Part shown: positions 1 to 14,388 of the stretch, piece by piece
Layout: each line of letters opens with the position of its first letter
Position numbering within the stretch: the stretch's first letter is position 1
Assembly (NCBI GenBank): GCA_046761065.1
Contig: JBHIFL010000090.1
Coordinates: 1 to 14,613 of the forward strand
Source of the DNA: Candidatus Heimdallarchaeota archaeon
GTDB lineage: Archaea; Asgardarchaeota; Wukongarchaeia; Wukongarchaeales; JBHIFL01
Direction of reading: 5' to 3'
DNA length: 14,613 nucleotides
Notes under the pieces: generated by a model
Seen by the model: the letters and a program-made list of their open reading frames with translations, nothing else
Database searches by the model: none
Told to the model about the DNA's origin: nothing
Position numbers and translations under genes: made by a program

Positions 1-339
1 CATGTAAAGGGTGCCCGCGAAGTACTTTGGCACCCTCGATTTCGTTTCGATTAAAGAGTGGGCGGAGACGCCGGAGAGGAAGAAGATCAGCACCAAGATC
101 GCCTTTTGAACGACCCAAGTCTGGACGATTGACGAGCAGAGTTGGATCAACGATGAGAGCCATGCCCCTCCTCCCCAGACTGGAGGACCGAAAAGTCCAT
201 AAAGGTTTGACTCTAGGCTTGGGCCAAAGACCATATCAAGGGTAAGTATGTAACCTGATTTAAGTAAGGTGCTAAGCACGGCGAGAGAGAGGGCCAAGTA
301 AAAGATGGGGTAAATAAGCTTCTCGAGCTCAATCTTCAT
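1..339 (-). CDS. 5' part (113 aa, truncated by the window edge) of a GT-C-type polytopic membrane glycosyltransferase, paralogous to the N-terminus of the 1394-aa protein
   Basis: Translated by hand from ATG at 339: MKIELEKLIYPIFYLALSLAVLSTLLKSGYILTLDMVFGPS...VVQKAILVLIFFLSGVSAHSLIETKSRVPKYFAGTLYM, with no stop before base 1. It aligns with the big protein: GYILTLDMVF / GLVMYGDLIF, QKAILVLIFFLSGVS / AKAYLLGCLILIGLS, AGTLYM / AALVYM(LNP). It overlaps the upstream gene by 11 nt. Confidence 0.85.
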   Translation of the reverse strand, partial: MKIELEKLIYPIFYLALSLAVLSTLLKSGYILTLDMVFGPSLESNLYGLFGPPVWGGGAWLSSLIQLCSSIVQTWVVQKAILVLIFFLSGVSAHSLIETKSRVPKYFAGTLYM

Positions 340-646
340 GTCTTTCCCTCAGGTACTCGATGAAGAGACCCAGAATTCCGACGGCAAGGAAGTAATACAT
401 CCAAATCGCAACCTCGTTCGAGTATCGTTCGCTACCTGTTGCAAGCAATGTAGCACATACAACTAAGAAAAAAAGAGCTGTTCCGACGAGTATTCTTGCA
501 TCGTATCTTCTCCATGCGAAGATGGCTAGAGTTAAGATAAACACAGCCAGAACCTGAACTTCTGAGCCAAGAAACCTTGCAGAGGCGACGCAAATTATAA
601 CTAGAATGAAAGGAAGAAAATCGTCGATCGATTTCAGTTTGGCCAT
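329..646 (-). CDS. Small integral membrane protein (105 aa, about 4 TM helices), function unknown
   Basis: Four hydrophobic segments and a C-terminal NEVAIWMYYFLAVGILGLFIEY motif. ATG start. Its stop overlaps the start of the downstream GT-C gene. Confidence 0.8.
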   Translation of the reverse strand: MAKLKSIDDFLPFILVIICVASARFLGSEVQVLAVFILTLAIFAWRRYDARILVGTALFFLVVCATLLATGSERYSNEVAIWMYYFLAVGILGLFIEYLRERHED

Positions 647-664
647 TATCCCAGCCCACTTATC

Positions 665-682
665 GCTCTTTAAGCCTTAAGA
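665..682 (-). promoter_or_regulatory. Possible archaeal TATA box for the 646 gene
   Basis: The minus strand reads CTTAAGGCTTAAAG, with CTTAAA about 23-28 nt upstream of the ATG at 646. This spacing would fit a leaderless archaeal transcript. It lies in a 72-bp intergenic gap after a T-rich stretch. Confidence 0.3.
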
Positions 683-718
683 CCAATAATAGATGATAAT
701 GATATGATAAAGAGAAAA

Positions 719-1441
719 TTATTTCTTTATCATTTCTGCCTCTTTTAAATCCTCGTCCGTGTTTATGTTAGTGTACTTATCGCAGACAGGAAAGATCTTT
801 ACTATGTGTCCATCGTCAACAGCGCATTGAACCAAATCTGGAAGTTCCTTTTCCTTTCTTTCGTGATGTATTGGCGTTCTTTCTATGTAGGAAAGAATAT
901 CGTTTTTAAAAATGCAGTGCCCAGTACCTTGAAAATCGTTTAACGCCTTCCTCGGCTTTTCTATTAGTCTGAAAACTCTGCCACCATTATCTACTATTAC
1001 TGAGTACGTCTTGGTTATTTTGTACCCATCCTTTGCAATACAAACTCCACACACACCAAACAAATTTTCTTCTTTAAACTTTTTCAGCATCTCTTTATGC
1101 CTGCTATTTATAAGAACTTCATCACCAAGCAAAAGGAAGAAATCATCGTTACCAATAGCGTGTTTACTGCACTCTATAGCATGAACCAAACCCCTTTGTT
1201 CTAATTGTATCGCGTATTTTATCCTTTTTCCATTGTAGCACGTTCCGTATCTATTTATTATGTCCTCTGCCCCGTAGCCAACAATGATTATGATCTCATC
1301 CACGTCTTCTAATTCAGCGGCGCGTTGGATGTTGTATTCCAATATAGGTTTTCCTCCAAGCTCCAACATGCATTTATTCGTGGGACCCTGTACCTCGCCT
1401 AATCTTTTCCCCCTTCCAGCCGCAAGAATCAACGCTTTCAT
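719..1441 (-). CDS. Sugar-1-phosphate nucleotidyltransferase (RmlA / glucose-1-phosphate thymidylyltransferase-like, NTP_transferase family), without a left-handed beta-helix domain
   Basis: Motifs ILAAGRGKRL, KCMLELGGKPILEY, QLEQRGLVHAI, LLLGD, LIEKP, ELPD and NINT. 240 aa. Confidence 0.9.
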   Translation of the reverse strand: MKALILAAGRGKRLGEVQGPTNKCMLELGGKPILEYNIQRAAELEDVDEIIIIVGYGAEDIINRYGTCYNGKRIKYAIQLEQRGLVHAIECSKHAIGNDDFFLLLGDEVLINSRHKEMLKKFKEENLFGVCGVCIAKDGYKITKTYSVIVDNGGRVFRLIEKPRKALNDFQGTGHCIFKNDILSYIERTPIHHERKEKELPDLVQCAVDDGHIVKIFPVCDKYTNINTDEDLKEAEMIKK

Positions 1442-1444
1442 ACT

Positions 1445-2473
1445 TCAGCCCCCAAACACATGTATATTTTCTCTTACCCATTCGACAAGCTTTCTAATCC
1501 CCTCCTCATTAGAGACCCTCGGCTCCCAACCGAGCTTTTCCTTAGCTTTGGTTATGTCGCAGACAAAGTACCATAAATCCCCCGGCCTTGTTTCCTTGAA
1601 TTCTATGTTTGGTTCCATGCCAGTTATTTCCCGTATCAAATTCAAACATTCTATCAATGAGATGGTGCGCTTGATTCCGCCACCAATATTGTAAATCCCT
1701 GACTTTTTATTTTTGTAAAACGCGTTGAATGCTGTTGCTGCATCGCTCGCATAAAGAATGTCTCTAACTTGTTTGCCTGTTCCAAAGACTTTTATAGGTG
1801 TTTTTAACATCGTTTTTATAACAAAATTTGCAACCCATCCGTGATCCTCCCCACCGAATTGTCTTGGCCCGTACATCCCAGTTAGACGGAACGTCGCAGC
1901 CTCCAAACCATAAGTATCTACATATGCCTGCACATACAATTCAGCTGCTCTTTTCGATGTGTGTAACGGTGTTATCTTACCTTGCATTGTGGGGTAATCC
2001 TCGTCTATTGCTGGTGGATCTCGAACGTACCGAGTTTCACTTCCCCTCAGCGTTTCATTTATCCCATTCCCGTAAACATGGATGGTGGAGCAGTTGACTA
2101 TGGGTACATCAAATTTTCTTGCCGCCTCTAAAACATTAAAGGTCCCTAGCACGTTTGTTGTAAAATCCAATTCTGACTGTTCTATGCTTATCGTCATTGC
2201 GGGTTGGGCAGCCGTATGGATTATGTAATCGCAGTCTTTACTAAGTTTGATTAAGTTATCTTTATTGCGTATATCTCCTTTAACCGATTGGGCACCGATA
2301 TTTTTCAAGAAATTCCAGTTGTATAACCTCGCACCTTCTACTTCGTACCCTGTTCTCATAAGCTCATGTTTGGTCAGGTTGTCTAAGGATACCACTTCCT
2401 CTCCTTGATTTTTGTAATACTCACATATGTGAGAGCCGAGAAATCCACATCCACCAGTTATAAGCACTTTCAT
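1445..2473 (-). CDS. NAD-dependent NDP-sugar epimerase/dehydratase (extended SDR), CDP-paratose 2-epimerase (RfbE)-like
   Basis: Motifs VLITGGCGFLGS, GDIRN, HTAAQPAMTISI, TRY, MYGPRQFGGEDHGWV, GTGKQVRDIL and RPGD. The ATG at 2473 follows an SD-like AAGGGGG; an alternative start lies at 2500. The catalytic YxxxK is replaced by LHTSK. Confidence 0.9.
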   Translation of the reverse strand: MKVLITGGCGFLGSHICEYYKNQGEEVVSLDNLTKHELMRTGYEVEGARLYNWNFLKNIGAQSVKGDIRNKDNLIKLSKDCDYIIHTAAQPAMTISIEQSELDFTTNVLGTFNVLEAARKFDVPIVNCSTIHVYGNGINETLRGSETRYVRDPPAIDEDYPTMQGKITPLHTSKRAAELYVQAYVDTYGLEAATFRLTGMYGPRQFGGEDHGWVANFVIKTMLKTPIKVFGTGKQVRDILYASDAATAFNAFYKNKKSGIYNIGGGIKRTISLIECLNLIREITGMEPNIEFKETRPGDLWYFVCDITKAKEKLGWEPRVSNEEGIRKLVEWVRENIHVFGG

Positions 2474-2500
2474 CAAGTTCGCCCCCTTGCTATCAATCAT

Positions 2501-2565
2501 GGGTAGATTTTTTACACGTATTTTTATACTTTATGGTTAAAAAATATTGCCGAGCGGGTGCGGGC
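2501..2565. promoter_or_regulatory. Short AT-rich divergent promoter region between the SDR gene (minus) and the DUF362 gene (plus)
   Basis: The gene starts diverge here. TTTTTATA at 2521-2528 reads TATAAAAA on the minus strand, and TTAAAAAATA lies at 2537-2546. Confidence 0.4.
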
Positions 2566-3501
2566 ATGAATAAAAATTTGAATCTCGTTTCGATAGCGAA
2601 GTTCGATGGCGATATCGCAAAAACTCTAAAAAACGCGGTAGACCTTATCGGCGGGTTAAGCCTTTCAAATATTCTAATTCTTATTAAGCCGAACCTTTGC
2701 GCGGAGATCGACATCTCAGGCGGCGCCACAACCGACCTTCGACTCATTCGAGCACTCGTGGACGAAATTTTGAGGGAAAAAGGAAATTCTGGAATTAGAA
2801 TAGTTGAATCGAATAGCGAGGCAAAATACATTGAGAAGGCTTTCAATAACTTAGGATACCGCCAACTTGAAGAGGGATATCAGGCTAATGGCTATGATGT
2901 TTCCCTTGTTAATCTGAGTAAGGTACCAACTAAGGCCGTTTCATTGGATGGGCTCTATTTCAAAAAGGTTAAGTTGCCAAAAATCTTGCTTGGTCCGAGG
3001 CTTTTTATATCAGTTGCCAAGGCGAAGACCCATGAGTTAACCCAAATTACCGGAGTTTTGAAGAATCAATTCGGGTGCCTGCCAGAGAAGGATAAAACCG
3101 TGTATCATAGGCATATCGACAAAGTAATCGTGGATCTCAACAGGATCATTAGGCCCGACCTCAACATCGTTGATGGGGTGGTCGGAATGGAAGGGGTATA
3201 CAAAGGAAGATTAAAAAAACTTGGGGTGCTCATGTGTGGGCATGATCCAGTTTCCGTGGATGCAACCTTAGCAAAGGTTATGGGTTTTAATCCTTTGAAG
3301 ATCAAGCACATAGTCCTAGCAGAAAGATATAAATTGGGATCGACGCGCCCGACGATAACTGGAGAAAAAATCGAGTCGGTTGCTATAAAATTTCGAAAGC
3401 CAAAATTGGGAACGGCTTATAAGATTTATCTACGTTTGCCGGAGCCTATTTCCCAAGTTATAAAGGGCGCATATAGAAAATTCGTCAGAGGATATAGCTA
3501 A
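2566..3501 (+). CDS. DUF362 family protein (putative Fe-S-associated), without a C-terminal ferredoxin domain
   Basis: Motifs LIKPNL, GATTD, KAKTH..TQITGVLKNQFGC, IVDGVVGMEG and DPVSVDA. Alternative start at 2533. It is the only convincing plus-strand gene. Confidence 0.88.
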   Translation: MNKNLNLVSIAKFDGDIAKTLKNAVDLIGGLSLSNILILIKPNLCAEIDISGGATTDLRLIRALVDEILREKGNSGIRIVESNSEAKYIEKAFNNLGYRQLEEGYQANGYDVSLVNLSKVPTKAVSLDGLYFKKVKLPKILLGPRLFISVAKAKTHELTQITGVLKNQFGCLPEKDKTVYHRHIDKVIVDLNRIIRPDLNIVDGVVGMEGVYKGRLKKLGVLMCGHDPVSVDATLAKVMGFNPLKIKHIVLAERYKLGSTRPTITGEKIESVAIKFRKPKLGTAYKIYLRLPEPISQVIKGAYRKFVRGYS

Positions 3502-4661
3502 CAACGGTTCTTTTTGCTTAGTGCGTTTTCGAATACAGTTAACATTTTTTGACAAAACTTATCCCAAGTTAGATTTTCAGCGGCGAAACGTCTCCCCCTT
3601 TTCGCCATATTCCAATAAGGCTTTGGATTATTGTATATGTCCAAAACGGCCTTAACAATATCATCTGTGACTATACCTATACCTTTTCTCGTTATGATGT
3701 CAGAGGCTGTCATCTCGGTGGACACGATTATTGGTTTAGAAGCACATAACGCTTCGAAAGGAGATAGCCACCCTCCTTGCGACTTAATGGGGAATAGGGC
3801 AATATCACATACATGATATAAATCTTTAAGCATTTGTTTGGGAATGTGTCCTGTAAAGACTATATGTTTTTTTAAGCCTTTTCTGTAGATATATTTTTTA
3901 ATCATTTCCTCGTAGGGGCCATTGCCTAACCCAGCCAAAACTAACTTGATATTCGGGATATAATTTCTTAACTTTTCAACGGCCTTTACGCTTTCAAACT
4001 GATTCTTCGAGGGGGTTATCATCCCCACTTGAAGTAAAATGAAATTATTGTAAAGGTTAAACTTACGCATAGCTTTTTTCTTATCACCGCTTGAAAAGAG
4101 CTCGTACTCTATACCGTAATGGATAATTTCAGCTTGCTTGTCGTATCTTGTAAAAGCTCGTTTAGCATTAAATTCATCTGCAACACAAATAACGTCTATA
4201 CATTTGTTAACAAAGAACTTGTCTAATGACGTAAGCGCATTTCTCATTATTTTCATCGGAACTGAATGGTCATTGGAATCGTACCATAAATCTGGAGGTT
4301 CATTACACATCCAAACACAGGGGGCGCGCTTAGGGAAAATAGACCATGTTGCCGGAAAATTATGAACATTTACCAAGTCAAAGCCATTAATGTTTTCGCG
4401 GAATAACTTTTGCATAGCAATGATTTCGCGAGCCAATCTTGTAGCACCAGAAAAATCGACACCCCACATTTTATATGGAATTGTTTTACGGGGAGTAATC
4501 ATATGAAGTCCTCTGTGTTCCTCAATAGTTTCGCGAGGCTTCGAAAGCGTTAATATGGCATTCTCAATCCCTTTTTTTGTCAGATAAGTGGCAAGTTTTG
4601 ACACCACGGTTTCGGCTCCGCCATACCAATCCATATGAGGATGTACGAACGCTACCCTCAA
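3498..4661 (-). CDS. Glycosyltransferase family 4 (GT-B fold)
   Basis: Motifs RVAFVHP..YGGAE, HNFPA, IIHYGI, VGMITPSKNQ, VFTGHIP, LYHVCDIALFP and EALCASKPII. TTG start. Confidence 0.9.
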   Translation of the reverse strand: MRVAFVHPHMDWYGGAETVVSKLATYLTKKGIENAILTLSKPRETIEEHRGLHMITPRKTIPYKMWGVDFSGATRLAREIIAMQKLFRENINGFDLVNVHNFPATWSIFPKRAPCVWMCNEPPDLWYDSNDHSVPMKIMRNALTSLDKFFVNKCIDVICVADEFNAKRAFTRYDKQAEIIHYGIEYELFSSGDKKKAMRKFNLYNNFILLQVGMITPSKNQFESVKAVEKLRNYIPNIKLVLAGLGNGPYEEMIKKYIYRKGLKKHIVFTGHIPKQMLKDLYHVCDIALFPIKSQGGWLSPFEALCASKPIIVSTEMTASDIITRKGIGIVTDDIVKAVLDIYNNPKPYWNMAKRGRRFAAENLTWDKFCQKMLTVFENALSKKNRC

Positions 4662-4684
4662 AAAAAATCCCGACTTATTTTTTG

Positions 4685-5962
4685 TTATAGTGTCGGGTCT
4701 ATCCCGTATTTTTTTTCTCTTTCCATGGCATCATAAGCCCTACACCCCCTGCAAAGTAATGGAACCTTAGCATCGGGCTTATTTACTGTGTATCTGAATC
4801 TTCGATATCTTTCAGAGTTCCATATTTCCTTGAACGGTTTTTCAAGCAAATTTCCGAAAGCATACTTTCTAAGAGAATCGCGATTGTTGGACATCAGCAC
4901 GGCACAGCAGGGCAACACATAGCCTGGTTTTCCCCCAGCTGTCATTACATAAGGCTCCATCCAGGCCAGGCAACGATTAATAGAGGGTAACCTCTTGGGT
5001 TCTGTATGAGCAAATATCACATCGGCGCCATCGACGATCTCTTTCTTTTTCTTTGCGGCCGCTATCTGAATTTTTTCCGGAACATTTAGTAAATAGTATT
5101 GCTTGATCTCAGGATACACAAGTAACCCAACAAAGTGAATTTTGCTTCCATCTCCAAGATCGTCCCTATTGCCAAATGTTCTTACTAGTTCAACAAATTT
5201 GGGCATCTCGTGATAATTTAGAGTCGTGATCACGTAGCGGAAGCAGAGTTCTGGTATCGGAGAATCTTTTGCTTTTTTTAGCTCAATAAGCTTTTTAATG
5301 TTTTTCGTCACTTTCTCGAAATCGCAACCCACTTTTATTCGTTCGTAGGTTTCCTTTGTTGCCCCATCCATAGACACATAAATACCATCCACATCCATAT
5401 CTACCAATTTCTTGGCTATTCTTTCGTCAATCAAATCAAAGCTGTCAACGAGATAAACCATCACGTCTTTCTTTTTTAAATACTCAATCATTTTCAGATA
5501 GTCTTTGTTTAGGAAAGCGTCCCCCTCGCCTGTAAGATTAACCCATTTTAAATTAGGAAATTGATCCACAATTTTTTTGAAATCCTCAAATGATAAATCT
5601 ATTGACGGTTCTTTCCAGTAGGTGTGCTCGCAAAGTACACACCTCTTGTTACATCTTGTCGTAATTTCTATTTCTAAATAAGACGGATAGGGTGCAATCT
5701 GAGGAAAACGACGGATTAAGGGGCCTATAAAATAGTATGCCAATTCCCCAGATCCCTCTCCTGTAGGTACAAAGGTTTTTGTGTAAAGGAAATTAATAAA
5801 AGCTTTAATCCCCCTTCTCTGCAATAAATATTTCATAGTCCGCCTATAACGCCATGCCGCCCTCGTTATCATAGAAAATACTTCACGCGTGCCGAGTACT
5901 TCTGCAGAAATACTGTGATCGGCAGGGACAATGGCTCTCGATATCCTACTAAGGATGCCCAT
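4685..5962 (-). CDS. Radical SAM protein with a SPASM/twitch auxiliary Fe-S domain (paralog 2)
   Basis: CNKRCVLC at 5630-5653, VSMDGATKETYERI, and a C-terminal C...PCC...FGNLLEKPFKEIWNS...CRGC. The start directly abuts the upstream stop (TAAATG). Confidence 0.93.
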   Translation of the reverse strand: MGILSRISRAIVPADHSISAEVLGTREVFSMITRAAWRYRRTMKYLLQRRGIKAFINFLYTKTFVPTGEGSGELAYYFIGPLIRRFPQIAPYPSYLEIEITTRCNKRCVLCEHTYWKEPSIDLSFEDFKKIVDQFPNLKWVNLTGEGDAFLNKDYLKMIEYLKKKDVMVYLVDSFDLIDERIAKKLVDMDVDGIYVSMDGATKETYERIKVGCDFEKVTKNIKKLIELKKAKDSPIPELCFRYVITTLNYHEMPKFVELVRTFGNRDDLGDGSKIHFVGLLVYPEIKQYYLLNVPEKIQIAAAKKKKEIVDGADVIFAHTEPKRLPSINRCLAWMEPYVMTAGGKPGYVLPCCAVLMSNNRDSLRKYAFGNLLEKPFKEIWNSERYRRFRYTVNKPDAKVPLLCRGCRAYDAMEREKKYGIDPTL

Positions 5963-8900
5963 TTATTGTTCCCTCTCTCTGCCAGCGAAACTTGTTGGGA
6001 AATATTTCCCTAGAGTTTTTACAGAACCTATTATTTTACACAGCTCCTTTTTGGATACATAAACCAATATCCCAAGTAAGCCTATTACTGAAATCGGAGC
6101 ACCGTAATAAAACCACCTCTGCGGTTTATACTCTATGGTAATTTCGAGTTCCCCCGTGTCCTCTATCCAAAATCCATTTATCACCGAGTAAAGAGGTAAA
6201 CTTTTGTACTCCTTTCCATTTACGCTTGCCGTCCAAAGTGGGTCATAAGCCTCAGCAAATGCCAACATGAAAGGTCTTTGGATATCAACACTAACAACAT
6301 ATTTCGTTGAATCTATTTCCTTCCACGAAATATCGACTGGGCTCCCCCCCAACCTGAAAATATCATCTAAATTTTCGTCATCGTTTACAGAGTAAACTAC
6401 AATACTGTCGATTTCGGTCTTTCCTTTAGGCAATATCTGCAAAACGTGTTTCCCTGTTTGAAGAAACACTACCCCCGAATAAACCCATTTGAGGTTTTCT
6501 TCCTCTCCCATTAGATTTACGTCAACCCTTTCACCGTCTATCCCTATTTCCATCGATTTATGGCTTGGACCTGTAAGAGCCCTCACCCCAATTTTGTAAA
6601 AGGAGTCTCTCAAAATATGAATGCTCGTATTTGCCCATGAAGGGTTTTCTAGCGAAAGTTTTATGTCTTTAATCCTAATTTGATGTGAATCCAGGCCTTG
6701 TTGGGACCTATTCTTGTTCCAATTTACGATTAGCTGAAACCAAATGACTTTACTTCTCGGACCTGCAGGAAAGGTGAATGAAAGCTCCTTCCATCCGGTC
6801 CAGTCCAAATTGTAATGTCCTATGCTCCAGCTTCTAAGTTCACCGTGATTCGTCCGATACCAGAACTCGAGCTGATTTCCGCTCCCATCACCATATGCCC
6901 AGAGGGAGAGGGTGTCGTAGTTTGACCAGTCCTCAAGCTCAAACCCCGTTTGGGCGACAACTTGGATAGAGTTTTCATTGTCGAAGGTGTAATTTATGAT
7001 CAAGTTCTCGCCATCGGAACTCACTTCAACATGATCTTGAGGGGTCCAAGGGCCTGCTTCCCAAACCCCAACATTGTCTGTATTTATTAAACGAGAGGTG
7101 ACAAAACTGCTATGAGATTTATTCAGCACAAGAACCTCCCCTCTACTCGCCTTTCCTCCAAGAAAGTTTGAAATTATCCCATTTCCGTATTCAAAATCAC
7201 TCTCCATTTCCAAGATGTAGATGAGTCTTTTCCCCTCTACAAAATGCCAAGCGTTACCAAAGTACTCTCTCGCTACTTCCTGGGGCATCAATGCTAAGAG
7301 ATTGACCGCGTTAAAGCCATAGGTATTTATCAAGGTGATATAATGTTCTCCTTTACTCAAATTAAATACGCCTACTTTTTTCCAAACGAAGTTGCTTGTT
7401 TTTGCACTTGTGACTATGCTACTCGCCTTTTCCCCATCAATTAATATCGTTAGTTTGCCGCCTTGGGGGTTCTCAAGCACTCGAGCATATAATTCATGAT
7501 AACCGCTCTTTTCAATCTCAATCGGAATAATAAGCGCGTGTCGAGGCCGTGAATCACTTTTGCTTGAAAGAACAATATCTTTGATTTTAATTTGATGTGG
7601 ACCCAAGCCCTGCTGGGACCAGTTCTTGTTCCAATTTACGATTATTTGGAACCAAAGGACCTTATTTCTCGGGCCGGCAGGAAAGGTGAATGAAAGTTCC
7701 TTCCACCCAGTCCAGCCCAAAGTGCAATGTCCAATGCTCCAGCTTCTAAGTTCACCGTGATTCGTCCGATACCAGAACTCGAGCTGATTTCCGCTCCCAT
7801 CACCATATGCCCAGAGGGAGAGGGTGTCGTAGTTTGACCAGTCCTCAAGCTCAAACCCCGTTTGGGCGACAACTTGGATAGAGTTTTCATTGTCAAAGCT
7901 ATAATCCACAACCAAACTCTCGCCATCAGAGCTCACCTTAACATGATCTTGAGGAGTCCAAGGGCCCGCTTCCCAGACCCCAACATCGTCTGTGTTTATT
8001 AAATGGGGAGGTACCGGTCCTAAACTTGGCCTGAAATCATATGTTAGTACTATTCCTTCGCCATAGTCAAAGTTCCAAGGGTTGGGCGAGGGAGAAGTGT
8101 GCCTTAAAAAATAAGTCCAAACGTCGTTCAAAGCAGTTCTGGACCAAGCTTCAGCGGGGTTAAAGCGAGTTGTATAAGCAAATGGAGCTATGAGATACTG
8201 ATTACTTACTTGTGCTAAAGCAATATCGCTTATGTTATTTTTTGAGCCGAGAATCACCCCTTGTGCATCGAAATAGCGGTTTAGCCTAACTTGGTCTAAG
8301 TAAAGCAAACCGAAAGAATCTGGGTCGAATGCTTCGATGGCATTTAGCGAAGTAAGCGTGTCCAAGCCTCCACTAACGAGGAGGTTTTGAGGAGGGATAA
8401 AGATAAATGGCGCATAATCATTATCTTCAAAAATATAATAGAAACCCTCTTGTTTAACGAATTTTAAATCTTTTTGTTCATTGAAATTAGCAATGGCTAT
8501 ATCTGCTTCCTCCTCGGCTCCGACGATGTCATCATGAAATAACACGTAGCGCGTGTTTGTAGGATTGAGATATTTCCCAAAATAAACCGTTTTGTTACCC
8601 AGCAGAGATTCGGAATAAATATACTCGTAATAATAGGCCGTAGAAGGGGTAGAAGGTTCGATATGTCCAAGGTTTGGTCTATTGGATGACCAGATTTCAA
8701 AAGGACCCGTGATACTACTTCCCCAAGTAGTTCCCCGTCCCCGGTATTCCGGTAACCAAGAAACTTTAAAATCGCCGCTTTGATTTGCTAGCCAATTGTT
8801 TACAATATAATATTCTTCGGGGATTTTAATCGGAATGTAGTTACTACCAAACCAACCTTTAACTGATGGTGCAATAAAAAAGGCGAAAGAGAAAAAGATA

Positions 8901-10147
8901 AGCAATACCGCTATTATTTTTTTCCAATTGAAGTTAGGATTTTTCCACCCTCTTTGTAATAGTCCTTGGATAGTGAAGCTCATCATAAAGCAGAAGGCAA
9001 GAGCTAACAGCCCTTCCCACTTATTTGGGTCGCGAAATACCTCAAAAAAAGGGACATTAAAGGTTAGCCATCTATAGCTTGAAGGAAGTGGGCCCTGAAC
9101 TCCCTTAGCCAAAAAGATGAAAAGAAATCCTATCAATGAAAAATACAAGGCATACTTATTCTTGGGGTTCAACAACAGGGAAGCGAAGGCAAATAGTGGT
9201 AGCATAAAGCTTGCAAATAACCAAGGATAAAATAATGCTTGAAATGAGGGGCTATAGTTTACATTTACAGCCCAGTATCCCATAAGTCTAATAACGTTCA
9301 ACACATTGCTATTTCTGCTGAAAAGATTGAGGCTTTCATCAGTTATGTAGGTTTCAGAATATACATGCTCTGGTGTAGCAGAACTAAACACGTACGGGAC
9401 GATCCAAAAAGCGCTAAAGATACAATAAAAGAGTATTATTAGAAGCGTCGATCTGAAATTATTTAATACTTCCGACTTACTTATAGTTTTGATACGAAAG
9501 AGGATTGAAAATGCAAGCCAGCTCAGTATTAACATTCCGGCAAAGATAGCATAAGCTGGGCTAGCGGAAATAAGGACCCATAGCAAAGCAACAGCAATAA
9601 AGTCCTTTATTCTGTGGTTTTTTAATGCCTTTATAAAGCACACTAAAAGCAAAGGAGTAAGAGCATAACCCAACAATAGCCAGATATGACTAAAGCGAGC
9701 TAATGACCAAGGATTTAGCATGTAGACTAAAGCAGCAATGATGGCAGCGATAAATGCCGTCTTTTTGTCCTTTCCATACTCCTTTAACAAAGTGTTGGTG
9801 GCATAATACATTGATAAGCCTATTAAAATCAGACACCCCAGTAGGTACGCTTTGGCAAAGGTTTCCATGGAGATGTTTAGTACTGAGGCAGTGCCAACTG
9901 TAAATGCTACTGTAGGGAGGCGAGGAAGTGCGAATAGCGCTGAAAAACTGCCATAGGGGCTCCATAGAGGGTAGGTGTAGTAGGAAAGGAATCTTTCCAC
10001 GGGAGATGGAAAAATGAGATCACCATACATTACCAAACCATTCGTGAACAGGACTCTATGCAAGACTGCCACTGAAATCGCTGAAATAAGCAGGAGGGGA
10101 AAGATTTTGATAAGTAATTTCTTAAAAGATTTATTGTGATGCAGCAC
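5963..10147 (-). CDS. Large GT-C membrane glycosyltransferase (AftD/DUF3367- and YfhO-like) with extracellular carbohydrate-binding-type beta-sandwich domains and a C-terminal TM anchor
   Basis: About 430 aa of polytopic N-terminus with an Asp after TM1 (YGDLIFP), YMLNPW, GYALTP and FRDPNKW. This is followed by YYIVNNWL..DFKVSWLP, two CBM11/CIA30-like modules (DWSNYDTLSLWAYGDGSG...WTGWKELSF), two CBM6/35-like segments, a YfhO-type end (EAYDPLWTASVNG...INGF...YKPQ) and a final TM helix. GTG start. Confidence 0.8.
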   Translation of the reverse strand: MLHHNKSFKKLLIKIFPLLLISAISVAVLHRVLFTNGLVMYGDLIFPSPVERFLSYYTYPLWSPYGSFSALFALPRLPTVAFTVGTASVLNISMETFAKAYLLGCLILIGLSMYYATNTLLKEYGKDKKTAFIAAIIAALVYMLNPWSLARFSHIWLLLGYALTPLLLVCFIKALKNHRIKDFIAVALLWVLISASPAYAIFAGMLILSWLAFSILFRIKTISKSEVLNNFRSTLLIILFYCIFSAFWIVPYVFSSATPEHVYSETYITDESLNLFSRNSNVLNVIRLMGYWAVNVNYSPSFQALFYPWLFASFMLPLFAFASLLLNPKNKYALYFSLIGFLFIFLAKGVQGPLPSSYRWLTFNVPFFEVFRDPNKWEGLLALAFCFMMSFTIQGLLQRGWKNPNFNWKKIIAVLLIFFSFAFFIAPSVKGWFGSNYIPIKIPEEYYIVNNWLANQSGDFKVSWLPEYRGRGTTWGSSITGPFEIWSSNRPNLGHIEPSTPSTAYYYEYIYSESLLGNKTVYFGKYLNPTNTRYVLFHDDIVGAEEEADIAIANFNEQKDLKFVKQEGFYYIFEDNDYAPFIFIPPQNLLVSGGLDTLTSLNAIEAFDPDSFGLLYLDQVRLNRYFDAQGVILGSKNNISDIALAQVSNQYLIAPFAYTTRFNPAEAWSRTALNDVWTYFLRHTSPSPNPWNFDYGEGIVLTYDFRPSLGPVPPHLINTDDVGVWEAGPWTPQDHVKVSSDGESLVVDYSFDNENSIQVVAQTGFELEDWSNYDTLSLWAYGDGSGNQLEFWYRTNHGELRSWSIGHCTLGWTGWKELSFTFPAGPRNKVLWFQIIVNWNKNWSQQGLGPHQIKIKDIVLSSKSDSRPRHALIIPIEIEKSGYHELYARVLENPQGGKLTILIDGEKASSIVTSAKTSNFVWKKVGVFNLSKGEHYITLINTYGFNAVNLLALMPQEVAREYFGNAWHFVEGKRLIYILEMESDFEYGNGIISNFLGGKASRGEVLVLNKSHSSFVTSRLINTDNVGVWEAGPWTPQDHVEVSSDGENLIINYTFDNENSIQVVAQTGFELEDWSNYDTLSLWAYGDGSGNQLEFWYRTNHGELRSWSIGHYNLDWTGWKELSFTFPAGPRSKVIWFQLIVNWNKNRSQQGLDSHQIRIKDIKLSLENPSWANTSIHILRDSFYKIGVRALTGPSHKSMEIGIDGERVDVNLMGEEENLKWVYSGVVFLQTGKHVLQILPKGKTEIDSIVVYSVNDDENLDDIFRLGGSPVDISWKEIDSTKYVVSVDIQRPFMLAFAEAYDPLWTASVNGKEYKSLPLYSVINGFWIEDTGELEITIEYKPQRWFYYGAPISVIGLLGILVYVSKKELCKIIGSVKTLGKYFPTSFAGREREQ
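6654..7091. repeat. Intragenic direct repeat, copy 2 (438 bp, about 146 aa CBM11-like module)
   Basis: Ungapped match to 7566-8003 at an offset of 912 bp. Bases 6822-6982 are identical to 7734-7894; the flanks are about 83% identical by hand count. Confidence 0.95.
7566..8003. repeat. Intragenic direct repeat, copy 1 (438 bp, about 146 aa CBM11-like module)
   Basis: Encodes LINTDDVGVWEAGPW...IKDIVLS and matches 6654-7091. Confidence 0.95.
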
Positions 10148-10191
10148 TTTTTTTACCTACAATATTGTCGTCTACATCATGCTCACACGCT

Positions 10192-11313
10192 TTACCCGTG
10201 CGCATGTGGCATCTTGAAAACCCTACAATATTTACAAATTTCGGGCACTTTTCCCTGACGTATCATCTGCCGAAGTTTTTTGTATTCGTTGTTCCATATT
10301 TCTGAGAAAGGTTTTTCAAACAAATTTCCTACTGCATTTTTTTTCTGAAAATCACGTTGATTCGCTTCATTTATTACGCAGCAGGGTTGTACATGCCCGG
10401 TGACAAGTATGAAAGGTTCAGTCCAACCGACACATTTAGTTATGGGTTCGGAAGGGGCCACGTTTGGATTCCACCACATCTCGATCCCTAACTCCCTCGA
10501 TTTTTTTACTAATGTACATTTAACCTCTTCAGGAATCTTTACGACTAAATCTCTAACTTCTTTAAAAGCGAGTAAATCAGACCAGTACACCAAAGTACCG
10601 CCAGTTTCATCAGCTTTTAGAGAGTGCACCAGTTCCAAGAATTTAGGCATTTCATAAACATTCATTTTAGTGACAATATAATGGAACCATAGCTCGGGTA
10701 CAGGTGAGCCTAGCTCTTTTTTCGCACGAAGAAGCGCTCTAACATTGTTTAAAACTTTGTCAAAATTTGCACCGACTCTTATTTTTTCATAGGTTTCTTT
10801 AGTTGCTGCATCTATTGATAAATAAATTTTATCTATCCCTATTTCGACCAACTCTCTCGCCATGTTTTCATCTATTTGAGTAAAGGTATCAAAAAATTCA
10901 ACGTATATTGATTTTGATTTTAAATATCTAAGCATTTTCATGTAATCTTTATTTAGAAATCCTGAGCCAATCCCTGTGATACCTATCCACTTAAGATTAA
11001 GAAATTGATCTATAATCTTCTTAAATTCTTCAAAAGACATGTCTCTGGGCGGTTCTTTCCAATAGGTATGTTCGCAAATCGTGCATTTAAGATGGCATTT
11101 TGTGGTGATCTCGACCTCAATAGTTTTTGGATATGGCACAAAATCCGGAAATATTCTATATAGTGGATCTAGGAGATTAAGACCTGAATTACTCGTAAAC
11201 AGCGAAACCCAGACGTAGTTGTACGCCATCTTGAACTTCCTTTTTCTCAACAGGTAAAAAATCTCTTTAACCCTCCATTTCACCAGTTTAAACAGTTTGA
11301 ATTTACTTGCCAT
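10192..11313 (-). CDS. Radical SAM protein with a SPASM/twitch auxiliary Fe-S domain (paralog 1)
   Basis: CHLKCTIC at 11074-11097, LSIDAATKETYEKIR, and a C-terminal C-x16-CC-x47-CxxC with GNLFEKPFSEIWN. ATG at 11313 (alternative TTG at 11322). Confidence 0.93.
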   Translation of the reverse strand: MASKFKLFKLVKWRVKEIFYLLRKRKFKMAYNYVWVSLFTSNSGLNLLDPLYRIFPDFVPYPKTIEVEITTKCHLKCTICEHTYWKEPPRDMSFEEFKKIIDQFLNLKWIGITGIGSGFLNKDYMKMLRYLKSKSIYVEFFDTFTQIDENMARELVEIGIDKIYLSIDAATKETYEKIRVGANFDKVLNNVRALLRAKKELGSPVPELWFHYIVTKMNVYEMPKFLELVHSLKADETGGTLVYWSDLLAFKEVRDLVVKIPEEVKCTLVKKSRELGIEMWWNPNVAPSEPITKCVGWTEPFILVTGHVQPCCVINEANQRDFQKKNAVGNLFEKPFSEIWNNEYKKLRQMIRQGKVPEICKYCRVFKMPHAHG

Positions 11314-11366
11314 AAAATTCAATATCAGTTTTTATCAGCGAACTAGTGAGCAAATACTCTTTAAAC

Positions 11367-12494
11367 TTAATTACCCAATTTTTTTTGCAATATTTCCATA
11401 AATTCTCTAGCACTTCTATCCCAGCTGAAATTTGAAGCCCATCTCAGAGCATTTCTTCTCAGCTTTCTTCTCAATTTTTCGTCTCCTAGAACTCTAATAG
11501 TTGCTAGCGCTAGCTTCTCTATGTCTCCATATGGAACAAGTAAACCTGTCTCTTCATTCTTTATGGAATCCCTATAACCTGGAACATCATAAGCGATGCA
11601 GGGGGTTCCACATAAATTTGCCTCTAATACTATTATCCCCCACCCCTCGAGCATGGATGTAGCAATAAGTACCCATGCTCTCCTCAGAATCTCGATTTTT
11701 TCTTCTTCGGATGTTGGTCCAGTTAGCTTGACAGAATGACTCAGACCCAATTTTTGCACGAGCTCATAAAGCTCTTTATATTCGCCTCTCCCCGCTATTA
11801 TTAGTTCAGCCTCTGGCACTTTTCTTTTAACAATTTCAAATGCTCGAACCACGTGATCGACTCGTTTATAATTTTTTATTCTGCCAAAGTATACCACTAG
11901 GAATCTGTTGGTTGAACTGAACTTCGGTCTGTATAAGTTTCTATCAATACCCATTGGGATGGCATTAACTAAGTGTTCACGAAACCCTAACGATATTAAT
12001 CCTTCCCTCAAAGAAAGACCATCAGAAGCTGTTATGATTGTGATATTCTTATAAATAAATGGCGTAAAAATATCCAAAATATGTACAAAAATAGCCAACG
12101 GCAAGGGCAACTCCTTATACAGTAATCTTCCGTGAATACCGCGGAATGCTTTATCCGCTCCATGTATTATCGCCATGAGCGGTTTTCCCTTAATGTAGAG
12201 AGGGGTGAAAAGGGGCACCTTAGTGATATCATCGATAACAACATCAAAATGTTCATGCCTTAGTTTTTTTACATAACACCAGAATGCGGCGAGACTAAAA
12301 GTATAGTCGTTCCCAACTCTGAACACCTTGATTCCGTCTATGACCTCAACATTCTTACAACCACTAAATTTGGATGAAACCAAGAAAACCTCGTGCTCTT
12401 TGGCAATTCTTTTAAAAATTTCATGTAAATGGACCTCAGATCCCCCAGCTTTAGGGTTCCTTATGTCCCTACAGTTTAAAACTAGGATTTTCAT
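11367..12494 (-). CDS. Glycosyltransferase family 4 (GT-B fold), RDxxxPxAGGxE subfamily
   Basis: Motifs MKILVLNCRDIRNPKAGGSEVHLHE, YFGRIKNYKRVD and the canonical EGWGIIVLEANLCGTP..AYDVPG. ATG at 12494 (alternative TTG at 12509). Confidence 0.92.
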   Translation of the reverse strand: MKILVLNCRDIRNPKAGGSEVHLHEIFKRIAKEHEVFLVSSKFSGCKNVEVIDGIKVFRVGNDYTFSLAAFWCYVKKLRHEHFDVVIDDITKVPLFTPLYIKGKPLMAIIHGADKAFRGIHGRLLYKELPLPLAIFVHILDIFTPFIYKNITIITASDGLSLREGLISLGFREHLVNAIPMGIDRNLYRPKFSSTNRFLVVYFGRIKNYKRVDHVVRAFEIVKRKVPEAELIIAGRGEYKELYELVQKLGLSHSVKLTGPTSEEEKIEILRRAWVLIATSMLEGWGIIVLEANLCGTPCIAYDVPGYRDSIKNEETGLLVPYGDIEKLALATIRVLGDEKLRRKLRRNALRWASNFSWDRSAREFMEILQKKLGN

Positions 12495-12514
12495 GCGAAT
12501 ACAGGTCAAAAACT

Positions 12515-13252
12515 TTAATTTTTATAAGCTATACCAAATTTTAACTTAAAACAAGTCTTGATGAATTCCATAAGATCTTTATTTCTGAGTTTCGACTCCC
12601 CACGTTTCCTTTCTCTGAAAATGATTGGGGTCTCAACGATTCTTGCACGTTTTTGAATAGCAAAATAAAGCAGACTGAGTTGAAATGCGTAGCCATCAGT
12701 TTCAAGGCGTTTCGGTAAACCTTCTAACATCGAAGCACGAATTGCCCTAAAGCCGCTCGTGCAATCCTTAAATTTAAAGCCTGTGGCAAACTTTCCGAGA
12801 AAATTTCCGGCCCAGCTTATCGAGCTCCTTCTCCAAGGCCAACCCTCTATTCTCCCGCCCTTAACATATCTCGAGCCTATCACAAAGTCATAACCTTCCT
12901 CTATTTTATCCAAAAGGCGCGGGAGATCGCTAGGGTCGTGCGATAGGTCTGCATCCATTTCCACGAGTGTGTCTGTTTTCAGCTCCTCTATTGAGTGTCT
13001 AAATCCTGCCTTGTACGCGTCTCCAAGGCCCTTTTTTTCAATTCTTTCGAGCAGGAATATTTTGCCGGGATTCTCTTTCGCTAGTCTTTTTACCTCAGAT
13101 GCAGTCCCATCCGGGCTTCCGTCATCAACAATTAAGACGATGATATCCCACTTTTCAATCGCCTTTTGTGAAACTTTCATGAGTTCCGAGAGCAAGCGCT
13201 TGATGTTCTCCCGCTCGTTATACGTGGGCACGATCACGCAGCATCTCTTCAT
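12515..13252 (-). CDS. Glycosyltransferase family 2, DPM1/Ppm1-like polyprenyl(dolichyl)-phosphate sugar synthase
   Basis: Motifs VIVPTYNERENI, VDDGSPDGT, GLGDAY, EMDADLSHDP, GSRYVKGG, DCTSGFRA, GYAFQ and PIIFRERKRGESK. It has an ATGA overlap with the flippase stop. Confidence 0.93.
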   Translation of the reverse strand: MKRCCVIVPTYNERENIKRLLSELMKVSQKAIEKWDIIVLIVDDGSPDGTASEVKRLAKENPGKIFLLERIEKKGLGDAYKAGFRHSIEELKTDTLVEMDADLSHDPSDLPRLLDKIEEGYDFVIGSRYVKGGRIEGWPWRRSSISWAGNFLGKFATGFKFKDCTSGFRAIRASMLEGLPKRLETDGYAFQLSLLYFAIQKRARIVETPIIFRERKRGESKLRNKDLMEFIKTCFKLKFGIAYKN

Positions 13253-14388
13253 TTTATCCCCCTAAAAAGGATCAGCGAAGCTGCCAAAGTTGTTTGAAGT
13301 AACAGCATGCTCGTCGCTAGCCCTATCGCCCCGAAGCAAGATCCTAGAACCAAGATCCCGGCAATCCCCGCGGCGAGTGCAACTGCATACGAAACTAGCA
13401 CCACGCCCGGCCTCTCATGCGCGTAGAGCTCGGACATCTTTGTCGCCGCGATGGTGAATGGTACTACCCCCAAGCTCATGACTTGAATTAAGCCAACGCT
13501 TTCAGAGAAGCTCGGGAAGACCCAGGGGATGATTATGGGGGAAAGCACAATGACCGAGGCGGCGAGCGCGACCGAGACGAGGATGCCAAGAGTTTCAACC
13601 TGCATAGTTTTGGTTCCAGCCGACTTCTCAGGCAGGAGGTAAGAGAATAAAACCATAGGCAGGACGCTTAAAGCCATGAATATCTGGTAGGCCAGCTGGT
13701 AAAGGCCAAGAGTAACCATGCCAAAGAGGGGCCCTATCAATATCTTGTCCAGCATGCTTGTAGAACCAGTTGTGACATCAGCGCCGAATGCCTTCAGGGC
13801 GAAACCTGCTTTTTCCTTCGCCTCTTTTATGCCCGGGTTGCTCTTACGCATGTATTTCAGGGATAAAAGACCAAATATAAGGTGAGGGATCGCGTAACCA
13901 AGGAGCACCCCAAGCAACCCCTGCCAGAAATACATTGCTATGGCAAGAGGGAGGGAGATGAGTTTTATCCCTATCCAAGTCCACATGTAACGCTTGTACC
14001 TGCGCTTCCCTAGTTCAAAGGATACGGTCATCGAGAAGAGCGAGAGGCCGACTATCAGCAGGCCAACCAAAGGCTCAACAAGCAGTCCCATGGCAACCCC
14101 GCCCGCAAGGCTGGTAACAAGAACGATCGTCACAGCACCCCCAAGGAGATCATCCATCCCCCCCTTCGGGTAATATGTGACTACGGTCTTTCCCCAACCA
14201 AGCACGCAAGAGGTGGAAACGAACATCGCTATCGATATTAGCCAGTTAATCTGGCCGTATGCGCCAGGCTCGAGCAACTTGGCCATGACGAACCAAAATA
14301 TCGCGCCTAAGGCCACGGCTCCTGTCTGCCCTATGGCCACATAAAGGACGCCGGGATGGCCTCTAAGAACCCTGTGAACGGTTTCCAC
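13249..14388 (-). CDS. Wzx/RfbX-like oligosaccharide flippase (polysaccharide biosynthesis / MOP superfamily)
   Basis: About 12 TM segments. Motifs AKLLEPGAYG, DKILIGPLFGMVTLGLYQLA, LLPEKS and FGAIGLA. GTG start, translationally coupled to the GT2. Confidence 0.88.
   Translation of the reverse strand: METVHRVLRGHPGVLYVAIGQTGAVALGAIFWFVMAKLLEPGAYGQINWLISIAMFVSTSCVLGWGKTVVTYYPKGGMDDLLGGAVTIVLVTSLAGGVAMGLLVEPLVGLLIVGLSLFSMTVSFELGKRRYKRYMWTWIGIKLISLPLAIAMYFWQGLLGVLLGYAIPHLIFGLLSLKYMRKSNPGIKEAKEKAGFALKAFGADVTTGSTSMLDKILIGPLFGMVTLGLYQLAYQIFMALSVLPMVLFSYLLPEKSAGTKTMQVETLGILVSVALAASVIVLSPIIIPWVFPSFSESVGLIQVMSLGVVPFTIAATKMSELYAHERPGVVLVSYAVALAAGIAGILVLGSCFGAIGLATSMLLLQTTLAASLILFRGIK

Follow-up and report, generated by a model that had tools for sequence, protein, structure and literature searches.

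A probable envelope-glycan locus of mosaic origin that joins twitch radical SAM genes to an AftD-like GT-C gene on a contig binned with a hydrothermal-vent archaeon

This report concerns contig JBHIFL010000090.1, a stretch of 14,613 nucleotides (nt) assigned to a Candidatus Heimdallarchaeota archaeon (assembly GCA_046761065.1). The whole of this 14.6-kb contig (C90) was analyzed and is referred to here as the window; it belongs to the 4.4-Mb bin of a hydrothermal-vent archaeon, which is 91% complete with 8.2% contamination. We conclude that the contig is a genuine cell-surface sugar gene cluster. Our preferred reading, to which we give a probability of about 0.6, is that it is an envelope-glycan locus put together from mobile modules: a cassette built around a radical S-adenosylmethionine (SAM) enzyme and a short-chain dehydrogenase/reductase (SDR); a module in which a second radical SAM gene is joined by genes for a family 4 glycosyltransferase (GT4), a GT2 and a flippase; and the gene for a large, AftD-like membrane glycosyltransferase of the GT-C class. 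A first-pass annotation, made from the sequence alone, had listed a nucleotidyltransferase, an SDR, two paralogous radical SAM enzymes, a DUF362 protein, a dolichyl-phosphate (Dol-P) sugar synthase, two GT4s, a flippase and two GT-Cs. All of these gene types are present where it had placed them, as judged from a listing of open reading frames (ORFs) and from Pfam/NCBIfam scans. Its further notion, that the genes form a single coherent system, could not be upheld: judging from gene content and order, the window is not one conserved system; it is a mosaic in which two or more mobile modules are combined with the GT-C gene.

Gene neighborhoods tie the two radical SAM proteins to glycan genes. With each species represented by one genome, a search for their family yielded 80 loci, and the surroundings were read by tblastn with the window's proteins and by clustering of all 1,114 ORFs in the loci. 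The loci span more than 20 phyla, bacterial and archaeal; among them are Elusimicrobiota, Omnitrophota, Patescibacteria, Planctomycetota (including anammox genera), Nitrospirota, Thermodesulfobacteriota and Chloroflexota, as well as Methanoperedenaceae, Syntrophoarchaeum, Bathyarchaeota, Hadarchaeota, Nanoarchaeia and others. The nucleotidyltransferase is matched in 50 loci, the SDR in 42, the two GT4s in 48 and 36, and the GT2 in 19. At least one of these four gene types is found in 70 of the 80 loci, and in 43 of the 46 whose two flanks are each 5 kb or longer; with these queries, the 4.4-Mb host genome outside C90 yields about 32 high-scoring segment pairs (HSPs) in total. The first-pass annotation had agreed to give up its proposal if the radical SAM homologs showed no conserved link to glycan genes, and these counts point the other way. 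At the sensitivity of BLAST, the DUF362 gene (1 of 80 loci), the flippase gene (0 of 80) and a 105-residue ORF (0 of 80) do not appear to be conserved companions of the radical SAM family, and the first two lose the place in the system that they had been given.

The same genes recur in fixed orders. Orthologs of the SDR, here termed LH-SDR, are found in 30 of the 80 loci (55-72% identity), those of the nucleotidyltransferase (NTP in the gene orders below) in 26 (at least 45%) and those of the GT4 named GT4b in 20 (at least 35%). The nucleotidyltransferase orthologs adjoin the LH-SDR in 26 loci, the GT4b orthologs mostly lie directly downstream of the radical SAM gene, and orthologs of the other GT4, GT4a (44-57% identity), adjoin that gene in L003, L042 and L043. 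One type of arrangement runs radical SAM-GT4b-SDR-NTP or SDR-NTP-GT4-radical SAM; a second runs B12-radical SAM(s)-twitch radical SAM-second radical SAM-GT4-NTP-GT4-GDP-mannose dehydratase. The recurrent core thus described by gene order is a twitch radical SAM enzyme, a GT4, a nucleotidyltransferase and an SDR that resembles CDP-tyvelose 2-epimerase. In a quick tree, LH-SDR is scattered across all three major clades of the radical SAM family. A reverse test on metagenome contigs placed a twitch radical SAM gene near two of five long LH-SDR contigs versus none of 56 Tyr-type SDR loci. The link of LH-SDR to the twitch enzymes is specific, but it is not obligate.

Many bacteria have the second type of arrangement, among them the anammox genera Brocadia, Kuenenia and Scalindua. 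It comprises one to three B12-binding radical SAM genes, a second radical SAM gene of the non-B12 kind (24 loci), a GT4 (40 loci), and a nucleotidyltransferase and GDP-mannose dehydratase; loci with this block (around position 10000) are L004, L013, L026, L029, L037, L051-L054, L063-L066, L069-L071 and L075. None of the accompanying radical SAM proteins and GT4s of the clustered loci falls in a curated family.

The two halves of the window have their counterparts in different organisms. The right half is syntenic with a locus in a metagenome-assembled genome (MAG) of the Dehalococcoidia (L003; flippase-GT2-GT4a-radical SAM A), and the left half together with the GT-C gene is syntenic with a Methanoperedenaceae locus (SDR-NTP-radical SAM-GT4b-GT4a-B12 radical SAM-GT-C). 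The nearest relative of radical SAM A, at 71% identity, is likewise from a Dehalococcoidia MAG; that of radical SAM B is from Methanoperedenaceae GB37 (73% identity in tblastn, 76% in the tree alignment). The paralogs A and B, which are 42% identical and were correctly called paralogous, fall in different clades of the quick tree, a tree that ignores organismal phylogeny. Module 1 (positions 719-5962 minus the inserted DUF362 gene) would be the widely distributed four-gene cassette. Module 2 (10192-14388) would hold the second pair of radical SAM and GT4 genes, from the other clade, plus a Dol-P sugar synthase and a flippase of the multidrug/oligosaccharidyl-lipid/polysaccharide (MOP) superfamily. 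Overall, the closest relatives of the window's genes are found in Methanoperedenaceae, Dehalococcoidia and Chloroflexota.

Both radical SAM proteins belong to the superfamily (56 bits against a PF04055 cut-off of 29.5). Among 20 aligned sequences, the CxxxCxxC motif, which in this superfamily binds the SAM-cleaving [4Fe-4S] cluster, is invariant (C76, C80 and C83), and only five C-terminal cysteines are invariant as well (C297, C314, C315, C363 and C366), with the C-terminal CxxC about 10 residues from the end. Five cysteines suffice for one auxiliary [4Fe-4S] cluster, for which the shortened SPASM domain of twitch enzymes has about four, but not for the two clusters of full SPASM maturases, which require seven or eight; therefore, these proteins are twitch rather than SPASM enzymes, as had been proposed. 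BtrN is the sole sequence match in the Protein Data Bank (PDB; E = 2.5e-6), and the C-terminal 63 residues align to its twitch domain. Both proteins are thus best described, from their sequences, as putative BtrN-type twitch enzymes of one uncharacterized family, which numbers at least 579 homologs. An AlphaFold2 (AF2) model of radical SAM A (pLDDT 88) shows three helices in the N-terminal ~60 residues, and its structural Z-scores (Foldseek, VIA-align) are 23.2 for DesII, 22.8 for SkfB, 22.4 for SuiB, 20.8 for BlsE and 15.7 for BtrN.

BtrN, NeoN and DesII are radical SAM enzymes that oxidize, epimerize or deaminate sugars in antibiotic pathways (NeoN, PMC10991966). The window's proteins share with BtrN (4m7t), NeoN and DesII (8hzv) the radical SAM core, the C-terminal single-cluster twitch domain and a genomic context of sugar genes, and DesII is the top structural match of radical SAM A, albeit tied with others. 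They differ in being only 13-20% identical to these enzymes, in having an additional conserved N-terminal region of ~60 residues and an invariant Cys-Cys pair, and in residing in the envelope glycan loci of anaerobes, not in antibiotic clusters. In one of the ESM Atlas clusters nearest to radical SAM A, phages (Uroviricota) are the commonest recorded phylum, the phylum being known for 12 of the 56 members.

The fold and the profile matches also bring to mind maturases of metallocofactors or of peptides that are made on the ribosome and altered after translation (RiPPs), whose place beside glycan genes would then be accidental. SkfB and SuiB rank high among the structural matches, and in NCBIfam the best matches are TIGR04317, a tungsten-cofactor maturase, and further SPASM maturases. 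Yet the TIGR04317 scores (139-143 bits) are far under the cut-off of 380, and the cysteine count is that of a single-cluster enzyme. Further, neither protein has a PqqD/RiPP recognition element (RRE) domain in Pfam, and intergenic gaps of at most 72 nt in the window leave no space for a precursor-peptide gene. Set beside a glycan-gene linkage kept in 70 loci across more than 20 phyla, these facts make the maturase explanation hardly credible.

The SDR encoded in module 1 is an unusual member of its lineage. Its closest solved relatives are the CDP-tyvelose 2-epimerases 9rl0 (E = 1.7e-59) and 1orr (E = 1.1e-52), and it retains the NAD motif GxxGxxG, the Thr and the catalytic Lys, the motif and the Lys being invariant. 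In the alignment to these relatives, the position of the catalytic Tyr is occupied by Leu, and the next residue is His (PLHTSK; motif at 1952-1969), so that the YxxxK triad of extended SDRs and of CDP-tyvelose 2-epimerases is broken. The STNK motif has become STIH in the window and [AS]T[IV]H family-wide, YDQGW has become EDHGW, and three new His residues (H141, H180 and H220) are invariant; that they might form a metal site is conceivable. All 30 cassette orthologs and all 24 metagenome orthologs carry PLHxSK, as do 115 of the 120 top database homologs; among the SDRs that these searches returned at no more than 38% identity, most retain PYxxSK. LH-SDR is a relative of the CDP-tyvelose 2-epimerase family (RfbE/TyvE), with which it shares the motifs of the extended-SDR fold, but not a canonical member of it, given the replaced catalytic residue and its pairing with a specific nucleotidyltransferase instead of 3,6-dideoxyhexose genes. 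The subfamily is very large (more than 2,600 database clusters at E of 1e-60 or below), and its proteins are labeled automatically as "CDP-paratose 2-epimerase" or "GDP-fucose synthase". A homolog with 72% identity is carried by a cultured methanogen, Methermicoccus shengliensis. The NCBIfam matches of the partner nucleotidyltransferase (AglF, archaeal GlmU and RmlA) are all below threshold.

The largest gene of the window encodes a GT-C with about 11 transmembrane (TM) helices in approximately residues 1-440, a large extracytoplasmic region and a single C-terminal TM helix. The first-pass annotation had likened it to AftD, and this likeness is borne out by fold and profile. An AF2 model of residues 1-560 (pLDDT 86, built on 23 homologs) has the mycobacterial arabinofuranosyltransferase AftD (6w98) as its top Foldseek match (E = 7.8e-7, TM-score 0.62), followed by STT3, PglB and AglB, and a profile of the GT-C's family matches AftD with E = 1.7e-21 over ~530 residues and weakly again at the C-terminal domain. 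The nearly invariant D43, in the loop after TM1, aligns within two residues of Asp41 of AftD, which is essential; AftD also carries carbohydrate-binding modules (CBMs) (preprint 10.1101/2019.12.22.885152). The window protein contains two CBM11-like modules (CBM_11, E = 1.4e-10) that stem from an in-frame 912-nt duplication (6654-6953 and 7566-7865). Like AftD, it thus combines a GT-C membrane domain, a conserved Asp in the first outer loop, a very large CBM-bearing extracytoplasmic region and a chain that re-enters the membrane at its C-terminus.

The differences from AftD are equally clear. Identity is about 14%; a single C-terminal hydrophobic segment (1346-1364) stands in place of AftD's four-helix bundle, which binds acyl carrier protein (ACP); the window holds no genes for the synthesis of decaprenyl-phospho-arabinose (DPA); the CBMs are CBM11-like and duplicated; and the host is archaeal or anaerobic. 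PF11847 (GT-C_AftD) is not matched by the window protein at E of 0.01 or below, and a relative that is 28% identical to it (P0134) just passes (26.5 versus 26 bits). By its modeled fold and profile, we regard the protein as a homolog of AftD, not as an AftD. Orthologous CBM-bearing GT-Cs (48-63% identity) lie inside the radical SAM/LH-SDR cassette in Methanoperedenaceae (L042) and Chloroflexota (L043), the latter full-length and 48% identical; distant relatives (23-25%) are found near the radical SAM cassette in L012 and L082.

Module 2 contributes the putative lipid-carrier steps. The GT2 had been called a Dol-P sugar synthase, and its best solved relative is indeed the Dol-P-mannose synthase of P. 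furiosus (5mlz, E = 5e-42), with ArnC next (~1e-17 to 1e-18); ArnC, AglJ, Dol-P-hexose transferase and PpgS are matched below threshold in NCBIfam. Polyprenyl-phosphate sugar synthases usually carry C-terminal membrane helices; the GT2 lacks a predicted one, as do soluble enzymes of the Dpm1/PpgS type, and we assign it putatively, by sequence, to the Dol-P-sugar-synthase type. The flippase passes Polysacc_synt_3 in Pfam (27.1 bits against a cut-off of 23), and its Atlas structure compares with Polysacc_synt and MurJ clusters at TM-scores of 0.86-0.88; it has about 10 hydrophobic segments in its 379 residues versus the 12-14 TM helices usual for MOP proteins. At the syntenic position in the Dehalococcoidia locus L003 stands a MOP-type gene that falls just below the Polysacc_synt cut-off (26.2 versus 28.2 bits).

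The lipid-phosphate sugar synthase, the flippase and the GT-C are encoded on one strand within 8.4 kb and, by gene content, constitute a putative three-component system. Three-component extracytoplasmic glycosylation is of an established kind, with ORF15/14/12 of Citrobacter as a pentofuranose system (PMC11127046), and so are CBM-bearing GT-Cs (PMC11127046; 10.1101/2019.12.22.885152). As in GtrA/B/C, ArnC/ArnEF/ArnT, CsbB/GtcA/YfhO and Citrobacter ORF15/14/12, a GT2, a flippase candidate and a GT-C (here CBM-bearing) are encoded together on one strand. Unlike in those systems, the window's flippase is of the MOP type and not of the small GtrA/ArnEF type, its GT2 is without membrane helices and is archaeal/dolichol-type by nearest relative, and two radical SAM/GT4 pairs and a nucleoside diphosphate (NDP)-sugar module are interleaved with the three genes.

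It must be asked whether these modules work together at all. The GT2, flippase and GT-C could add a plain hexose, with the radical SAM cassettes making some other cytoplasmic product. In 76 of the 80 loci the cassette has no GT-C with it, and in 61 no GT2 match; the closest relative of the GT2 makes plain Dol-P-mannose, and the halves of the mosaic have different nearest relatives. Against such a separation, an orthologous GT-C lies inside the cassette in two unrelated lineages (L042 and L043), with the more distant ones in L012 and L082; in the window, the stop of the GT-C gene abuts the start of radical SAM B, and all of these genes are on one strand. On balance we regard functionally separate modules as a serious alternative, albeit an unlikely one.

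Building on the observed protein identities, folds, conserved gene linkage and mosaic synteny, we propose a pathway in which the kind of reaction, its substrate, the sequence of steps and the equation of the tailored sugar with the sugar used by the GT-C are inferred. The nucleotidyltransferase would activate a sugar-1-phosphate, and LH-SDR, dependent on NAD and with the His as its likely base, would reshape the NDP-sugar, which the GT4 would then transfer. Before or after this transfer (with the NDP-sugar or the GT4 product as its substrate), the twitch enzyme would abstract a hydrogen atom from the sugar in an oxygen-independent reaction, leading to oxidation to a keto sugar, to epimerization or to dehydration. 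Radical SAM epimerases are known to employ a thiol as hydrogen-atom donor, and the invariant Cys-Cys pair could supply one here. The GT2 would load a sugar onto dolichyl phosphate, the MOP protein would flip it, and the AftD-like GT-C, encoded between the modules, would transfer the lipid-phosphate-linked sugar at the outer face onto a surface glycan that its CBMs hold, in the manner of three-component systems.

The cassette probably makes an undescribed sugar, to go by its gene content. More specifically, we suggest tentatively, and at somewhat worse than even odds, that the radical SAM enzyme, GT4, nucleotidyltransferase and LH-SDR could represent an undescribed oxygen-independent route to a new activated sugar (a keto, epimerized or deoxygenated hexose), swapped horizontally for use in envelopes among anaerobes of more than 20 phyla, and delivered here via dolichyl phosphate and the AftD-like GT-C. 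The first-pass annotation had known of no characterized envelope pathway with this combination of genes. We, too, found no curated family or paper for the cassette, in a search that left most of the subscription literature outside, where a description could exist. A comparative-genomics paper on ladderanes (PMC2649909) was considered as such a description and set aside, as it concerns other clusters.

Carbohydrate-active radical SAM enzymes that have been characterized mostly act on glycosides, not on NDP-sugars. HpnI/HpnK/HpnJ synthesize the cyclitol ether of bacteriohopanetetrol, BtrM/BtrN carry out aminoglycoside steps, and AprD4/AprD3 (a radical SAM diol dehydratase with an SDR-type reductase) remove oxygen at C3' in apramycin. 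These precedents suggest another product for the window: a glycolipid head group or a small glycoside, remodeled by the radical SAM enzyme after transfer, as in the hopanoid and aminoglycoside cases and by the calditol synthase of Sulfolobus. Consistent with it are the glycoside preference just mentioned, the tightest gene adjacency, which is that of the radical SAM gene with the GT4, and the company that the family keeps in other phyla, where HpnJ-like and AprD4-like B12-radical SAM enzymes and a DegT aminotransferase accompany it. In the window, however, the flippase, the Dol-P sugar synthase and the CBM-bearing GT-C speak for a glycan outside the cytoplasm; several GT4 or GT2 genes and a GDP-mannose dehydratase are present in many related loci, much as in polysaccharide loci; and no cyclitol synthase was seen. 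A head group or small glycoside is thus distinctly unlikely. The AprD4/AprD3 and HpnI/HpnK/HpnJ systems nonetheless resemble the cassette: in each, a sugar is remodeled without oxygen by a radical SAM enzyme that has an NAD(P) oxidoreductase or a glycosyltransferase as its partner. AprD4 and HpnJ differ in being of the B12-domain-like class rather than the window's twitch class, and no membership at the sequence level links them; B12 enzymes of their type accompany the window's family in other phyla, not in the window itself.

Several facts weigh against the envelope-glycan reading. We infer the chemistry, the product and the target of the locus; none of the NCBIfam matches of the radical SAM proteins comes near its cut-off, so no solved or curated family fixes the reaction, and the near-tied Z-scores of DesII, SkfB and SuiB mean that the fold cannot choose between a sugar and a peptide substrate. 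No priming phosphoglycosyltransferase, polymerase or oligosaccharyltransferase is encoded in the window. The co-occurrence that had been named as a test for the radical SAM genes is borne out for the SDR and the GT4s but hardly for the GT-C, which is near them in only four of the 80 loci, while the flippase is near them in none at the level of BLAST. The link from a radical SAM-tailored sugar to the GT-C rests on the window and on L012, L042, L043 and L082. Ten of the 80 loci, four of them shorter than 8 kb, have no glycan gene, and the trio of LH-SDR, nucleotidyltransferase and GT4b lacks a nearby twitch radical SAM gene on three of the five long metagenome contigs; for these reasons, the partnership of radical SAM gene and cassette is frequent, not obligate. 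Finally, the assignment to a host is uncertain.

Twelve genes were recognized in the window (Table 1), eleven on the minus strand and the DUF362 gene alone on the plus strand. They are packed tightly, in keeping with the translational coupling that had been noted: the flippase and GT2 genes overlap by 4 nt (13249-13252), the GT-C and radical SAM B genes abut (5962/5963), the LH-SDR and nucleotidyltransferase genes are 3 nt apart (1441/1445), and the genes at the position-1 end overlap by 11 nt (329-339).

Table 1. Genes of the window, with positions, strand and basis of assignment
Feature	Position	Strand	Basis
Short MOP-superfamily (Wzx/MurJ-like) putative lipid-linked-glycan flippase, 379 aa	13249-14388	-	Pfam Polysacc_synt_3
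GT2, polyprenyl (dolichyl)-phosphate sugar synthase type (putative), 245 aa, catalytic domain only	12515-13252	-	PDB 5mlz
GT4 (GT4a), 380 aa	11367-12509	-	Pfam Glycos_transf_1, E = 7.8e-42
Twitch radical SAM A, 376 aa (363 aa in database gene call)	10192-11322	-	Pfam Radical_SAM + SPASM
AftD-like GT-C, 1394 aa	5963-10147	-	AF2 fold, family profile, CBM_11
Twitch radical SAM B, 425 aa	4685-5962	-	Pfam Radical_SAM + SPASM
GT4 (GT4b), 387 aa, radical SAM-adjacent GT4 of the conserved cassette	3498-4661	-	Pfam Glycos_transf_1
DUF362 protein, 322 aa, inverted	2533-3501	+	Pfam DUF362, E = 5e-40
Extended SDR of the CDP-tyvelose 2-epimerase lineage (LH-SDR)	1445-2500	-	PDB 9rl0, 1orr
Sugar-1-phosphate nucleotidyltransferase, 240 aa	719-1441	-	Pfam NTP_transferase, E = 1.5e-25
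Small membrane protein, 105 aa, 3-4 hydrophobic segments, no family	329-646	-	Hydrophobicity
Second GT-C-like membrane protein, truncated at the contig end (N-terminal 113 aa present)	1-339	-	Weak matches

Apart from the AftD-like GT-C gene, three of these genes lie outside the proposed modules. The DUF362 gene stands inverted between GT4b and LH-SDR, its stop overlapping the convergent stop of GT4b; the cassette that it interrupts is unbroken in most other genomes, which gives it the look of an insertion specific to this lineage. Its product has no solved relative, and DUF362 homology occurs in five other HSPs elsewhere in the host genome. Of the two GT-Cs in the first-pass annotation, the AftD-like protein is complete, whereas the second is a fragment with weak matches: 30% identity over 69 residues to the N-terminus of the first (E = 0.003), NCBIfam MmpA below its cut-off (E = 3e-9) and a 46% tblastn match in the Methanoperedens locus L012. 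The gene for the 105-residue protein overlaps the start of this second GT-C-like gene, and its product could be a small membrane partner; it was also considered as a small flippase of the GtrA kind, a proposal that no family match supports.

The junction between the halves of the window raises the question of an assembly artifact. The entire window is tiled by Logan contigs in four vent metagenome samples, each contig departing from it by no more than one base and depth being even; one of these contigs, from run X4, reaches 1.7 kb beyond the position-1 end, and at the opposite end the Logan contigs reach 2.4 kb further. The four samples come from one study, and each may be the source of the bin; they therefore do not constitute independent support. 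The sole graph break is a 161-nt internal repeat of the GT-C gene, and the join is for this reason not a chimera. This tract, identical in both copies of the duplication (6822-6982 and 7734-7894), assembles as a single graph node whose depth is raised in the three samples listed (32-40 versus about 17-31), which fits two identical copies and possibly recent gene conversion.

The bin itself is archaeal: an archaeal signal recognition particle (SRP) RNA scores above threshold in it, and no bacterial SRP RNA was found. A VPS28 match, absent from all 14 control genomes, fits the Asgard label. No mcrA was detected, so a methanogen or an anaerobic methanotrophic (ANME) archaeon is ruled out as host, as far as a 91%-complete bin shows. 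The window was said to lack an AglB/STT3 gene, and the Pfam/NCBIfam scans confirm this for STT3 throughout its length; nor does it encode the phosphoglycosyltransferase plus Wzy or STT3 that a Wzx/Wzy- or AglB-dependent pathway needs. Elsewhere in the bin, contig C56 (2243-3433 and 14427-14894) carries AglB (STT3, in a 717-residue frame) and an AglH-like phosphoglycosyltransferase about 11 kb apart, and therefore a canonical N-glycosylation locus exists separately from the window. A second AglH-like gene is on contig C123.

Whether the window belongs to this archaeon is less clear. In a sample of 300 other genomes from the host phylum, the radical SAM family was not found, and relatives of the GT-C occur in just four of them, at 28% identity or less; given this absence of the family and of any close GT-C relative, the locus was either acquired horizontally, and recently, or mis-binned. 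In the latter case, the contig would come from another vent organism, such as a Methanoperedenaceae-like archaeon or a Chloroflexota bacterium, which would change the host and not the function. The bin's 8.2% contamination, the sparse relatives within the phylum, the nearest relatives in Methanoperedenaceae and Dehalococcoidia and a tetranucleotide distance that ranks 109th of 127 contigs (the outer 15%) all fit mis-binning. Yet that distance is still below the 95th percentile, the GC content is 41.8% against a genome mean of 42.0%, depth is even in the four samples (a comparison within the contig), and glycan islands are often horizontally acquired and compositionally odd. Accordingly, we consider mis-binning unlikely, though well short of negligible.

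To our knowledge, nearly all known radical SAM chemistry on sugars belongs to pathways for antibiotics and lipid head groups. In the window and its relatives, an uncharacterized twitch family is tied by conserved gene order in more than 20 phyla to genes for nucleotide sugars and glycosyltransferases that point to the envelope, and it comes with a large uncharacterized SDR subfamily that lacks the textbook catalytic Tyr. What would be new is an envelope glycan locus whose lipid-carrier/GT-C branch is tailored by an uncharacterized, widely shared radical SAM/SDR cassette. The AftD family has, as far as we know, been studied only in Actinobacteria, and the AftD-like GT-C in archaea and Chloroflexota extends it beyond that group. 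If the cassette does make a new sugar, that sugar would be common in the surface chemistry of bacteria of the candidate phyla radiation (CPR), Omnitrophota, anammox bacteria, ANME-related archaea and DPANN.

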